From Dehalococcoidia bacterium (GTDB taxonomy: Bacteria; Chloroflexota; Dehalococcoidia; SM23-28-2; RBG-16-64-32), in contig CAXXTF010000002.1 in NCBI GenBank assembly GCA_963665775.2, positions 1,120,001 to 1,184,000 of the forward strand: a DNA stretch of 64,000 nt. The letters run 5' to 3'. Shown in pieces: positions 10,250 to 53,085 of this stretch. How positions within the stretch are numbered: the first letter of the stretch is position 1; the number at the start of each line of letters is the position of its first letter. The position numbers and the translations under genes were made by a program. The notes beneath the pieces are model-generated. The model did not search any database. It had not been told where the DNA came from and was given only the letters and a program-made list of their open reading frames with translations.

Positions 10250-11152
10250 TTGGACTTCGGGCAGGTTCAGGCCTTCGTGCAGGTGGCCGCCCACAACTCT
10301 TTCAGCAGAGCGGCGGAGGTCCTTCAGCTGACACAGCCATCCATCACGGCCCGCATTCAGACCATGGAACGCGAGCTCGGTGAGGAGCTGTTCGAACGGG
10401 GTGGCCGCGGGGTGCGGTTGACCGACGCGGGACGGACATATCACCCTTATGCGGAGCGGATCCTCCGGACGCTACAGGAGGGCCGCGATGCCCTGGAGGA
10501 GGTGGGAACCCTCCGGCTAGGTTCCCTTCGCCTCGGCTCGGCGCTGACCATCTCTACATACGTCCTGCCCAGGATTCTCCACACCTTCCGTCAGCGCTAT
10601 CCAGGTGTCGATGTTGTCATCCGGACCGGCCGCTCCGAGCAGGTGCTGAGCATGCTCCAGGCTGACGAGATCCAGATAGGACTGGTTCGCGCCCTCTCTC
10701 ACCCAGACCTAGAGACAGTCCACCTTTACAACGATGAGATCGCCCTAATCGCCTACCCCGAACACCCGTTCGCCGGCGGCCCCAGAATCAGCGTGGAAGA
10801 TCTGGCAAGCCAGCCCTTAATCCTCTTCGACCGAGGCTCTTCCTATTACGGACTTATTCACAACCTCTTCCGCCAGGCAGGCGTCATTCCCAATGTGGCC
10901 ATGGAGTTGGACTCCCTGGAAGCGACGAAGCGCATGGTGGAGGAGGAGCTGGGCATCGCGCTAGTGCCTCTCGTCACCGTCGAGCGGGAGCTGGCAGCGG
11001 GAACCCTGGTAAGGGTGGATATGAGCGATGCGGAGCCGCTTGAGCACCCCATCGCCCTCATCTCCCGTCGCAACCGCAAACGGCCGCGAACCGTTCAGGC
11101 GTTCGTGGACACCTTAGCCGAGATGTACGCCCCGAGCTTGCCCGTAGGGTAG
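10250..11152 (+). CDS. LysR-family transcriptional regulator
   Basis: N-terminal HTH SFSRAAEVLQLTQPSITARIQTMERELG plus substrate-binding domain; ATAG-N7-CGAT LysR-like box upstream. Confidence 0.93.
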   Translation: MDFGQVQAFVQVAAHNSFSRAAEVLQLTQPSITARIQTMERELGEELFERGGRGVRLTDAGRTYHPYAERILRTLQEGRDALEEVGTLRLGSLRLGSALTISTYVLPRILHTFRQRYPGVDVVIRTGRSEQVLSMLQADEIQIGLVRALSHPDLETVHLYNDEIALIAYPEHPFAGGPRISVEDLASQPLILFDRGSSYYGLIHNLFRQAGVIPNVAMELDSLEATKRMVEEELGIALVPLVTVERELAAGTLVRVDMSDAEPLEHPIALISRRNRKRPRTVQAFVDTLAEMYAPSLPVG

Positions 11153-11202: not shown

Positions 11203-11931
11203 TCAGCGTTTTTGCTTCTCCGCCTGAACTCGATCGCGCAGCCGTTTGAGGGCGCGGAAGACGGCGACGCGCACATGACTCGCGGTCATACCCATGACCT
11301 GAGCGATCTCTCCATGCGTTAGCCCCGCTTCGAACTTGAGGGACAGGATCTCCTGGTCACGGTTGATCAGCGTGCGAAAGTGGCGCATGAGCTCGGCAAT
11401 CTCTTCGTCTTGAACTGCCTGTTCCGCGGGATCCGGGGGCCGATCCGCTAGCCAGACGGACTCTTTGGCCCGATCCATTGTGTTGAGCTCTCGCTTGCGC
11501 CTACGGAAGGAGCCCACAACCACGTTCCTGGCGATTGCGAACAGCCAGGCGCCATAGGCCCCCGCTTCCCTCAGGCTATGACCCTTGGCGTAAGCCCGCT
11601 CGAAGATCTCGGCAGTGAGGTCTTTGGTCAACTCCACGTTGTTGACACGGCTGTACACGAAGGCGAACACCCTAGTGTAATAGCTCTCGTATAGCTCCGT
11701 GAAGACCGAGTCATAGTCCTTCTTGCCCGTCATCTGGGCCTGCCTGACTTGCGAAGCCCTCCCCCGTTTCGATGGCCATCTCCCCTCAGCCATTTCTCGT
11801 GCTTCCATGCCCAGGAGGAGGATCTTCGCCAGCCGGACCGCGACGTTCAGGACGGCCTGGGGAAGATCCTCCTCCTGGGCATGGAAGAGTCGCACCGCCA
11901 GCTGCCGCAGGTGCCCTGTATCTACCGACAC
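11203..11931 (-). CDS. ECF sigma-70 factor (start uncertain: 11931, 11793 or 11733)
   Basis: Region 2 FTELYESY...DLTAEIFERAY...AWLFAIARN; region 4 EILSLKFEAGLTHGEIAQVMG...RALKRLR. Confidence 0.88.
   Translation of the reverse strand: MSVDTGHLRQLAVRLFHAQEEDLPQAVLNVAVRLAKILLLGMEAREMAEGRWPSKRGRASQVRQAQMTGKKDYDSVFTELYESYYTRVFAFVYSRVNNVELTKDLTAEIFERAYAKGHSLREAGAYGAWLFAIARNVVVGSFRRRKRELNTMDRAKESVWLADRPPDPAEQAVQDEEIAELMRHFRTLINRDQEILSLKFEAGLTHGEIAQVMGMTASHVRVAVFRALKRLRDRVQAEKQKR
11802..11887. repeat. Perfect 26-bp inverted repeat with 34-nt spacer
   Basis: CTTCCATGCCCAGGAGGAGGATCTTC (11802-11827) is the exact reverse complement of 11862-11887. Confidence 0.95.
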
Positions 11932-12095: not shown

Positions 12096-12950
12096 CTAGG
12101 GGCGCCGGCCGGTGGCCCAGATCTCTTTCAGTATCTCCAGGTTCTCGCGGTCGGGACCCTGCTTGGCGAATCCTGGCACCTCTAGGAGGAAGGGCACGTC
12201 CGCGAAGGCCGCGTGGGCCATGATCTTCTCGAAGCCGCCGCGGCCGATGTGACCCTGGCCAATGTTCTCGTGCCGGTCGACGCCACCGCCCAGCGGACAC
12301 TTGGAGTCATTGGCGTGAACGGCTACCAGCCTCTCCAGGCCGATCTCCCTATCGAACTCCGCCATGGCGGCTTCCAGCCCGGCCTGGGACTTCAGATCGT
12401 AGCCGGAGGCGAAGGCGTGCTGGGTATCCAGGCAAACCTTGACCCGCGGGCTACCGGCCTCCCGTATAATGGCGGCCAGCTCGCCGAACTTCGAGCCGAT
12501 GGCGTCGCCCATGCCGGCGCTGTTCTCCAGGATGAGCCAGACCTCCTCTGGCGTGGCCGCGATGATCCCGCGGACGGACTCCACAACCTGACCAAACACC
12601 TCATCGTAGCCCCTACCACGGTGGCTACCGATGTGGAAGATAACGCCCGTAGCGCCCAGCAGGTGACAGACCTTCATGTCGTGGACGAGGGCCTCGCGGG
12701 ACTTGGCCAGGTTCTCCGGGTTGCCAGTGGCCAGGTTCACCAGATACACGCCGTGGAGGAAGGTGGGGGAGATGCCGGTCTCCTCCACCCTGGCCGCATA
12801 GGCCTGCACCTCGTCCGGCTTGTACTCCTTACGACGCCAGGCCTGAGGGGCACCGCTGAAGATCTGAACCGCTTCCGCGCCTATCTCCTGCGCGCGACCG
12901 ATGGCCTTATCGACCCCGCCAGAGGCGGAGACGTGAGCCCCTATCTTCAT
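12096..12950 (-). CDS. nfo: Endonuclease IV (AP endonuclease)
   Basis: IGAHVS, HGVYLVNLA, FHIGS, LENSAG, CLDTQH, HANDSK...DRHENIGQG, LE.P zinc ligands. Confidence 0.94.
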   Translation of the reverse strand: MKIGAHVSASGGVDKAIGRAQEIGAEAVQIFSGAPQAWRRKEYKPDEVQAYAARVEETGISPTFLHGVYLVNLATGNPENLAKSREALVHDMKVCHLLGATGVIFHIGSHRGRGYDEVFGQVVESVRGIIAATPEEVWLILENSAGMGDAIGSKFGELAAIIREAGSPRVKVCLDTQHAFASGYDLKSQAGLEAAMAEFDREIGLERLVAVHANDSKCPLGGGVDRHENIGQGHIGRGGFEKIMAHAAFADVPFLLEVPGFAKQGPDRENLEILKEIWATGRRP

Positions 12951-13270
12951 CGTCGTCTCCTGGCCAGGGATGGGGTTCGGGCCAGAAGGCCGCGAGCCCA
13001 GGGGAGAAATACTTTATCCTGCACAGCTTCAACCGCCTCCTCGTCTGTCAGGCCGAAGCCGGCCCGCACCGTCGCTATCCCCATCCCCAGGTCGACTTCC
13101 GCCGACGCCGCACCGGGCAGCCCGTCCAGGGCCGCTCTCACGCGACGCGCTCATAAGCCACATATCATCCCCCGCACCTGAAGGCGAAGGGTCTGCCCTT
13201 TCTCATCGGACTCCAGGGATATCACCTGGGCTTCCGGGAAGACGAACAGATTACGGAGCCTGATGGACAT
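12947..13270 (-). CDS. HMA-domain (CopZ/MerP-like) protein with putative selenocysteine (GMICGLU)
   Basis: ATG 13270 with GGAGG RBS and TGgTATAAT promoter. In-frame TGA 13153-13151 sits at the second Cys of GMxCxxC. The frame continues ARRVRAALDGLPGAASAEVDL, and a stem-loop follows the UGA. Confidence 0.8.
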
Positions 13271-13454
13271 CAGCACCTCCAGTGGACCAATTATACCAAG
13301 TCTGATGCCCTAGGTCTCACAAAGGGCCCGCCTCTGACCGCCTGCTTGAGATCAATCGTGGCAGGGGCAGGATGGCAGCTACCTGAACGCTGGACTGGCT
13401 ACGTCTGGCAGCGGTAAAATGTTGATAGGATGTCGTCCCACACACGAGGTTGCT

Positions 13455-13878: not shown

Positions 13879-15201
13879 GTGGCTGCTCCTAGACCCTGGC
13901 TCCCGCTCCTGGCCACAGCGGTGACGCTCCTGGTGCTAGCCTGCAACGGCAACGGCACATCTCCCTCGGCAACCCCCTCACCATCAGCGACGCCCTCCCC
14001 CACCCTCACCCCTAGCCAGTCACCCGGCCGTGGCAACACCAGCGAAGGCCAGCAGTTTGACGGCGAGGCTGCGTTGGCCCACATACGAGCCCTGGCCGTG
14101 GAGATCGGCTCCCGTCGCAGCGGCAGCGAGGCGGAGGCCGCCGCAGCCAAGTACATCCACGAGCAGCTAGACGGATACGGCTACGACACGACCTTACAGG
14201 AGTTTAGCTTCGACGCCTTCTTCGACATCGGGACGACCCTACAGGTGACCTCGCCGGACCAGCAAGCGATCGACGCTGTCCCCCTCGAGCCGAGCATCAG
14301 CGGCCTCGCCGAGGAGCATCTCGTGGCCGCCGGGCTGGGCCGTCCGCAAGAGTTCCCTACGGAGACGGCCGGCAAGATCGCCCTCATAGAGCGGGGCGAC
14401 ATCTTCTTCAGCGATAAGGGGATCAACGCCGCCGCGGCGGGGGCCGTAGCCGCTATCATCTTTAACGACGAGCCGGGCCCCTTTGCGGGAACCTTACGGG
14501 ACGACGTTACCATTCCAATCGTGGGCATCTCTCGGGAGGACGGCCGGAGGCTCCTCACCCTACTCGGCTCGGGTCCCGTTTTCGTGCGCCTGGACGTGCT
14601 GACCGATTCCGGCTCCCAGCCTTAGCAAAACGTTGTAGCGAAGCCGCCAGGAGGCCAGTGCCAGGTCATCGTGGGTGGGCACTACGATTCGGTGCCGGCC
14701 GGGCCGGGTGCCAACGATAATGCCTCGGGAACGGCGACGGCGCTGGAGATCGCCAGCGTGCTGGCCGCCGACGGCGAGCTCGATGACGTCTGCTTCGTCC
14801 TCTTCGGGGCCGAGGAGGTCGGCCTCATAGGAAGCGGCGCGTTCGTCAGGTCACTCTCCCCGGACGAACGGAGTGACGTACAGGGCATGCTCAACTTCGA
14901 CATGGTGGGGGCGGGAACCGACTGGCTTCTGTCAGGCTCCGATGAGCTACGCGATCTGGCCGCGGCGGAAGCGGATCGTCTGGGCCTGGTGTACCAGACT
15001 TCCGGCGGTTTGCCGGCCGGGGCAGGCAGCGACCACGCCCCCTTCATCCAGGCGGGCATTCCGGCCATCATCTTCCACCGGCTGGGCGATCCCCACTACC
15101 ACACGAACGAAGATACGGCGGGGTTCATTCAGGTGAACTTTCTCGAGGAGATCGGCACCCTGGGCCTCGCCGTCCTTGACGCGCTGCTGATGGGACGGTA
15201 G
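13879..15201 (+). pseudogene. M28 aminopeptidase lipoprotein with PA domain, split by one in-frame TAG (14623-14625)
   Basis: Lipobox VLAC, PA domain (GKIALIERG), then SQP*QNVVA...GGHYDSV..GPGANDNASG, FGAEEVGLIGS, NFDMVG, SDHAPF, YHT, all in one frame. Confidence 0.85.
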
Positions 15202-52995: not shown

Positions 52996-53085
52996 GGAGG
53001 GGTGCCGGAGTGGTTGAACGGGGCGGTCTTGAAAACCGCTAGGGCTTCCGGGTCCTCGTGGGTTCGAATCCCACCCCCTCCGCCA
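52996..53085 (+). tRNA. tRNA-Ser(TGA)
   Basis: GGAGGGG acceptor, GCGGT-CTTGAAA-ACCGC anticodon arm, long variable arm, GGTTCGAATCC, 3' GCCA; 90 nt. Confidence 0.96.

Follow-up and report, generated by a model that had tools for sequence, protein, structure and literature searches.

HMA-type proteins carrying selenocysteine (Sec, U) are on record in a few forms. The tables of published selenoprotein surveys list a UxxU protein, a UxxC P-type ATPase and a 'MerP' in the GOS list (PMC13188914, PMC9312934, PMC2398784), and a MerT/CopZ fusion selenoprotein is on record in NCBIfam as NF045683. The UxxU protein, of the NF041115 type, is named 'putative mercuric reductase' in the tabulated selenoproteomes of two reviews (PMC13188914, Table 1; PMC9312934). 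Here, we analysed a 64,000-nt stretch of a Dehalococcoidia bacterium genome (contig CAXXTF010000002.1, positions 1,120,001 to 1,184,000; hereafter the window), in which a gene encoding an HMA-domain protein with a CxxU motif lies directly before nfo, the gene encoding endonuclease IV. An initial annotation of the window had stated that Sec-containing HMA proteins exist, which agrees with the listed UxxU protein, UxxC ATPase and MerT/CopZ fusion, and had proposed a hidden CxxU selenoprotein at this locus. The proposal is supported by the Sec machinery of the genome, by Sec and Cys orthologs, by a hairpin specific to the Sec forms and by the retention of the TGA codon. Judged from sequence comparison, this is a real, mis-annotated selenoprotein gene of the HMA-type metal-binding kind, and it belongs to a previously unremarked HMA family linked to nfo. 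Neither a small CxxU HMA family nor its link to nfo appears in the tables of PMC13188914, PMC9312934 and PMC2398784 or in literature searches at the level of titles and abstract starts. No nfo link of the NF041115-type protein is given in the review tables, and in the deep-Sep and BSepDB papers the main text has no mention of HMA, heavy metals, CopZ or copper.

The features of the locus, from upstream to downstream, are as follows.

13290..13298, minus strand: extended -10-like element TGGTATAAT, 19 nt 5' of the HMA ATG (from sequence; putative promoter role)
13274..13280, minus strand: Shine-Dalgarno sequence GGAGGTG of the HMA gene (from sequence)
12947..13270, minus strand: selenoprotein gene for an HMA-domain protein with GMICGLU, 107 codons plus stop (Pfam HMA match and full-length orthologs)
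13151..13153, minus strand: UGA, predicted Sec codon, codon 40, at the second Cys of GMxCxxC (Sec/Cys column in orthologs)
13109..13144, minus strand: hairpin resembling a bacterial Sec insertion sequence (SECIS) (folds, pair counts against a Cys-form control, and bacterial SECIS (bSECIS) constraints)
12947..12950, minus strand: ATGA, overlap of the HMA stop and the nfo start (from sequence)
12096..12950, minus strand: nfo, endonuclease IV, 284 aa (TIGR00587 and PF01261)

The HMA gene starts at the ATG at 13270-13268, with GGAGG (13280-13276) located 5 nt upstream, and the orthologs begin at a Met aligned with this start. Its 107-codon frame contains a single in-frame TGA (13153-13151), giving ...RGMICGL-U-ARRV..., and ends with a TGA at 12949-12947 that overlaps the nfo ATG at 12950-12948. 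The start, ribosome-binding site, extended -10 element, in-frame TGA and hairpin of the initial annotation were all recovered on the minus strand where it had placed them, and the ATGA overlap of the two genes was likewise borne out in the sequence. A TATAAT/TATACT-like element was found 15-25 nt before the start in 9 of 13 orthologs. A promoter and terminator scanner returned no -35/-10 hexamer pair on the strand of the HMA gene and no terminator-like site between the HMA gene and nfo. From this layout, the two genes are very probably co-transcribed.

Under translation table 11, the HMA frame is split into open reading frames of 41 and 64 aa, and only the 64-aa piece is present in the protein database, as might be expected if the TGA were a true stop in a pseudogene, a boundary between two small genes or an assembly error. 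Against a true stop stand the TGA at the same Cys column in nine genomes of four genera, with both halves of the protein conserved, the Sec-form-specific hairpin that follows it, the complete Sec machinery and the agreement of contigs from four studies, and we consider such a stop extremely improbable. Based on the comparisons set out below, UGA-40 is almost certainly read as Sec. The terminal TGA stop of the gene itself led us to reject an alternative genetic code for TGA.

The window genome (2.35 Mb in 2 contigs, 91% complete) contains all four of the genes that the initial annotation had named for inspection, selA, selB, selC and selD. Specifically, selA scored 437 bits and lies about 259 kb from the HMA-nfo pair, selB was recognised by its SelB wing domain (74.7 bits) in a 638-aa frame, and selD (367.8 bits) has an in-frame TGA of its own. 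The tRNA-Sec gene is located on contig 1 (78.4 bits), and ARAGORN gave its anticodon as TCA. Outside the window, two selD-like genes exceeded the TIGR00476 cut-off (second contig, C2:1214863-1215795 and C2:1465008-1465940); one of them, with a TGA in frame, probably encodes a SelD that itself contains Sec, and the other has a TAG inside the match. Within the window, a tRNA-Ser gene with anticodon TGA (52996-53085, plus strand) reached 49.4 bits on the Rfam tRNA-Sec model (gathering score 47), and was discounted as a spurious match to the model; the genuine tRNA-Sec gene is the one on contig 1.

A six-frame search of 65 genomes of the order identified full-length HMA orthologs (E <= 1.1e-36) in 16, including the window genome; a seventeenth match, in genome G049, was a P-type ATPase and was excluded. 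TGA occupies the second motif Cys position in nine of the 16 orthologs (the window genome G000, G009, G015 and six genomes of one genus), representing four genera, all within the family of the window genome. The other seven have TGC or TGT at this column, namely G011 of the window's family and all six genomes of a sister family. The orthologs are 35-53% identical to the window protein over its full length and are conserved on both sides of the TGA, so that the Cys homologs with two-sided conservation sought by the initial annotation do exist. SelA was found in all five Sec-form genomes tested and in four of five Cys-form genomes tested, and was not found in the Cys-form genome G011, which is 71% complete. 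Three Cys-form genomes of the sister family have selA and the HMA-nfo pair on one contig, separated by about 12-14 kb (G025 C5, G036 C124 and G032 C42).

Contigs of four public runs from four studies, one or two of which may be the window's own source, show no differing letter at the TGA codon. Two of the four runs represent strain variants with a synonymous change in the Cys37 codon, at 13160. The TGC or TGT that the initial annotation had allowed for at the Sec codon is thus absent from these contigs, all of which keep TGA. The nine Sec forms, from four genera of a single family, probably descend from one Cys-to-Sec event and are therefore not independent, which lessens their weight as evidence for Sec. 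The G011 locus (L022/L112), the one Cys form in the window's family, appears to be a Sec-to-Cys reversion that accompanied loss of the Sec trait: its nfo groups within the nfo genes of Sec-form genomes, the hairpin columns are degraded, and the search for selA gave no match in this genome. As an apparent natural reversion, this ortholog bears on the evolution of Sec use.

The two-stem hairpin with a G-containing loop 23 nt after the UGA folds as the initial annotation had described. Its upper stem of 7 bp is formed by GCGGCCC and GGGCUGC (13135-13129 with 13123-13117) around the apical loop UGGAC (13128-13124), and its lower stem pairs 13144-13140 with 13113-13109; the spacing between the UGA and the loop is 22 nt. 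The minimum free energy (MFE) is -13.6 kcal/mol in the window and ranges from -7.5 to -13.6 kcal/mol across the nine Sec forms, all of which have a loop of 3-5 nt, an upper stem of at least 4 bp, and a G at loop position 1 or 2 followed by another G. The bSECIS model, as given in the legend of Fig. 2 of PMC13188914, allows 3-9 nt for the loop and 4-16 bp for the upper stem, with a G in the first two loop positions, a distance of 16-37 nt from the UGA and an MFE <= -7.5 kcal/mol, and the window hairpin, like those of the other Sec forms, lies within these published ranges. The bacterial SECIS geometry claimed for it earlier therefore agrees with that legend, and it is conserved in 9/9 Sec forms and not in 18 Cys forms.

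In the ungapped alignment of the Sec forms, GCCC-UGGAN-GGGC is invariant apart from N in all nine, so that the four core base pairs (GCCC/GGGC) are formed in every sequence, and two flanking pairs show compensatory changes. The two-helix structure is paired in 88.0% of cells in the Sec forms, vs 33-57% when the partners are slid by 1-3 columns. The same columns in the 18 Cys forms are paired in 53.7% of cells, and for the upper helix the values are 40.5% in the Cys forms vs 82.5% in the Sec forms. Additionally, third-codon positions are invariant among the four genera in 4 of 12 hairpin codons vs 4 of 52 codons elsewhere in the gene; the Fisher's p of 0.035 is indicative only, because the sequences are related. 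Several results weigh against Sec decoding. In this GC-rich DNA, the hairpin energy by itself is no better than that of shuffled sequence (z = -0.96, with an equally good fold in 32 of 200 shuffles). When columns were shuffled, the observed pairing values were attained in 92 of 500 trials, because most paired columns never vary, and Rfam gave no match at E <= 10 in 12900-13350. On the comparative evidence, the hairpin is SECIS-like and specific to the Sec forms.

The read-through product, scored with Cys in place of U, matches the Pfam HMA domain PF00403 at 41.4 bits (cut-off 24.8; E 1.9e-10), the match covering residues 30-84 and profile positions 2-57 of 62. The metal-binding motif is C37-x-x-U40, within GMICGLU. 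Family members share a conserved 29-residue N-terminal extension (M-R-x-x-x-R-R-L-F/L-x-x-P), followed by the HMA core and a basic tail (V-I-L-x-x-x-R-R-x-L), and G34, C37, C/U40, R43, L48, A82 and R93 are invariant in 30 family sequences. A Tat signal at the N-terminal RRLF was rejected, no hydrophobic region being found after it. Three members from one family of the class (L126, L129 and L133) have GLVC-x-x-x-C, a Cx3C loop with a one-residue insertion; in these three loci the stop is still overlapped by nfo.

The composition of the family would suit a basic accessory protein whose Arg-rich extensions bind DNA or hold Nfo on it, with the CxxC/U motif being structural or regulatory. Across the 30 members, the median isoelectric point (pI) is 10.75, with a median net charge of +5.5; R43 and R93 do not vary, and many Arg residues occur in the tail. 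However, the pI is below 8 in 8 of the 30 members, and no known DNA-binding family was matched in Pfam or NCBIfam; we assign this role a small probability.

The CxxU/CxxC pair might instead be a redox centre, making the protein a thiol/selenol oxidoreductase or a switch for oxidative stress with a repairing, regulatory or sensing function for Nfo. In favour of such a role, the redox motifs met most often among prokaryotic selenoproteins are CxxU and UxxC (PMC13188914). Endonuclease IV, moreover, is active on DNA with oxidative damage. Against it, the sequence scores as HMA and not as a thioredoxin-like fold, the Cx3C loop of three members is more in keeping with chelation than with dithiol redox chemistry, and no conserved redox partner gene was found nearby. 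Taking both sides together, a redox function appears quite improbable.

The range of the family was examined with a profile of 13 orthologs, a full-length match being defined as E <= 1e-14, in 401 sampled genomes of the class. In this search and in one of the phylum, 12 candidates were scored per genome, and the genomes are samples of their groups. Full-length matches were found in 54 of the 401 class genomes, a count that includes one genome flagged as unpublished (G296), which entered the analysis for this count only. They are concentrated in a few families, one of which has matches in 22 of 25 genomes, and all matches outside the window's family have the Cys form. In the phylum sample, only two of 401 genomes were matched, both of the same class. 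Among the genomes searched, the HMA family thus appears to be confined to some lineages of one Chloroflexota class, and its normal motif is CxxC.

The synteny with nfo proposed for checking by the initial annotation extends well beyond the window. Of the 34 loci inspected, 33 have nfo directly downstream, and the one without it is a false match to a P-type ATPase; nfo hence follows in 33/33 loci of the HMA family, and these loci span several families of the class. The HMA stop and the nfo start overlap by 4 nt in 16 of 20 loci in which both ends could be placed, and the other four have gaps of 3-27 nt. By form, the overlap was found in 9/9 Sec forms and in 7/11 Cys forms evaluated. For another 17 loci, in which no start codon could be assigned to nfo, tBLASTn likewise puts nfo immediately downstream.

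This pairing bears on the possibility that the HMA protein is a general buffer or detoxifying chaperone for soft metals (Cu, Hg and Cd), unrelated to Nfo, with the gene order simply inherited. Such a buffer would agree with the best NCBIfam likenesses of the protein (CopZ, MerP, UxxU proteins and the N-terminal domain of MerA, none of which reached its cut-off), with the occurrence of Nfo mostly without an HMA neighbour, and with the association of Sec in known HMA-type selenoproteins with Hg or heavy-metal systems, as far as the review tables describe them. By contrast, nfo follows in every family locus even though the Nfo proteins are only 43-75% identical, and stop and start mostly overlap or lie close together. 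Moreover, the immediate neighbours in the window include neither a P-type ATPase gene nor mer genes, and the conserved N- and C-terminal extensions are absent from the CopZ models, whose profile matches cover residues 29-85 only. An unrelated soft-metal buffer is therefore unlikely in our judgement, though the least so of these other roles.

The protein encoded downstream is an endonuclease IV. The window Nfo scores 250.3 bits on TIGR00587 (cut-off 129.65) and matches PF01261 with an E of 3.9e-50. Nine His/Asp/Glu columns (H66, H106, E142, D175, H178, H212, D225, H227 and E257) show no variation among 25 linked Nfo sequences and presumably correspond to the E. coli residues that form the ligands of the three-metal site. 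Because these presumed metal ligands are invariant, a metal-loading or metal-guarding partner is the most economical role for the HMA protein.

We therefore favour, in outline, the following scheme. UGA-40 would be decoded as Sec by the SelA, SelB, SelD and tRNA-Sec of the genome, the signal being the coding-region hairpin with its GG-containing apical loop. The HMA gene would form the first cistron of a two-gene unit and be followed by nfo, whose start its stop overlaps. Sec would serve at the second motif position in the four genera of the window's family, and the rest of the family would use CxxC. The HMA protein would act as a dedicated metal-handling partner of endonuclease IV, delivering metal to its trinuclear metal site or guarding that site, and the selenolate might raise the affinity or the exchange rate for metal. 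Taken jointly, with identity and role together, this explanation seems to us about equally likely to hold or to fail. For its parts, we incline slightly towards some direct functional link between the HMA protein and Nfo, while metal delivery to, or protection of, Nfo specifically is a reasonable candidate that we would still not call probable.

A number of observations count against a dedicated partner of Nfo. Among 73 other nfo loci, from metagenome-assembled genomes (MAGs) named as Chloroflexota or Dehalococcoidia, the HMA gene lies upstream in only one; since 72 of the 73 lack it, Nfo does not in general need the HMA protein. Among those without the HMA gene is the nearest relative of the window nfo that was found, with 72% identity. 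Conserved gene order could reflect inheritance within one class. No Nfo column separates HMA-linked from unlinked enzymes when a residue is required in at least 85% of linked and at most 25% of unlinked sequences. CopZ/Atx1 chaperones are acidic, and the HMA family, with the median pI given above, is basic and has extensions outside the CopZ models. In view of the unpaired loci, the lack of a distinguishing Nfo column, and a protein that is basic and longer than CopZ-type chaperones, the metallochaperone serving Nfo that the initial annotation had proposed is retained here as a conjecture.

The closest nfo relative (L036) is located on the MAG record JACOUE010000026.1, where a sequence resembling the divergent gene upstream of the HMA gene in the window sits near nfo. 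The proximity of this sequence to nfo suggests a clean deletion of the HMA gene in L036. In a FastTree phylogeny of Nfo rooted at the midpoint, the linked enzymes fall into five groups and are paraphyletic to a large unlinked group. Because of this paraphyly and of the 72 unpaired loci, the HMA-nfo arrangement is read, from the sequences compared, as an old pairing that was lost several times.

The overlap of the two genes raises the possibility that nfo translation depends substantially on Sec insertion through coupling and polarity, as the initial annotation had suggested. Two features of the loci oppose this: in 13 of the 20 loci listed, nfo has its own purine-rich stretch resembling a Shine-Dalgarno sequence, and the same overlap occurs in Cys forms, in the proportion reported above. 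The dependence stays conjectural, and from the sequences we regard it as doubtful. A still broader proposal would combine all of these elements. The family would provide a lineage-specific, dedicated Cys/Sec metallochaperone or metal-gating subunit for endonuclease IV, ancestral in part of the Dehalococcoidia-like class, repeatedly lost and upgraded to Sec in four genera, and the capacity of these four genera to repair apurinic/apyrimidinic (AP) sites would be tied to their selenium supply by the stop/start overlap and by polarity after failed Sec insertion. In this complete form the proposal is speculative, and we would not expect all of it to hold.

Beyond the pair, a gene of the sigma-70 family (ECF-like; window 11203-11931, minus strand) is located 164 nt downstream of nfo. 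Among the family loci compared, it was found only in the window and in five of six genomes of the sister family (f2), and no third conserved gene of the operon was identified. A LysR-family regulator gene (window 10250-11152, plus strand) follows downstream of the sigma gene. Upstream of the pair are two open reading frames (window 13879-15201, plus strand), the first of which has a 53%-identical relative in one g3 genome. No tie between the HMA-nfo pair and either the LysR gene or these reading frames was seen.

The locus has practical and biological implications. The HMA gene was missed or truncated by standard gene calling, and the same correction applies to at least nine genomes. The nfo-linked HMA family provides a testable candidate for loading or protecting the three-metal site of endonuclease IV, and, if the partner reading is true, it may connect selenium status with DNA repair in the Sec genera.

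Single enzymes are known to have dedicated metallochaperones, such as UreE and HypA for Ni enzymes and CCS for Cu,Zn-SOD. The present locus may work in a similar way, with the gene of a small metal-binding protein lying next to that of a single metalloenzyme and the two probably being expressed together. For endonuclease IV, literature searches of titles and abstract starts returned no chaperone or accessory protein.

Among metal-binding proteins, the window protein shares the HMA domain and the GMxCxxC-type loop with CopZ/Atx1 and MerP, and its best NCBIfam match is CopZ_AFE_1862. Nevertheless, it falls short of the CopZ cut-offs (NF047957, 40.7 vs 85 bits; NF033795, 28.5 vs 91; NF033794, 27.4 vs 95) and of the MerP cut-off (24.2 vs 92.55 bits). 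Unlike these proteins, it is basic and about 40 residues longer, with conserved extensions, and its neighbour is nfo and not a P1B-ATPase or mer genes. With the UxxC P-type ATPase (E1-E2) and the MerT/CopZ fusion NF045683, it has in common a Sec in a heavy-metal-binding CxxC-type motif. However, those are membrane transporters with Sec in the first position, whereas the window protein is a free 107-aa protein with Sec in the second; it reached 17.9 bits on NF045683 (cut-off 375) and lies far below the cut-off for the ATPases.

The nearest selenoprotein is the NF041115 type, which is the second-best NCBIfam match and is likewise a small HMA-like metal-binding protein with Sec inside a CxxC-type motif. 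Its motif is UxxU, with two Sec residues, compared with CxxU in the window protein, which scored 31.3 bits against a cut-off of 95 and matched the 74-position model with residues 26-68 only. With the locus described here, a CxxU form joins the few HMA-type selenoproteins, for which the forms found on record in the review tables are UxxU and UxxC.

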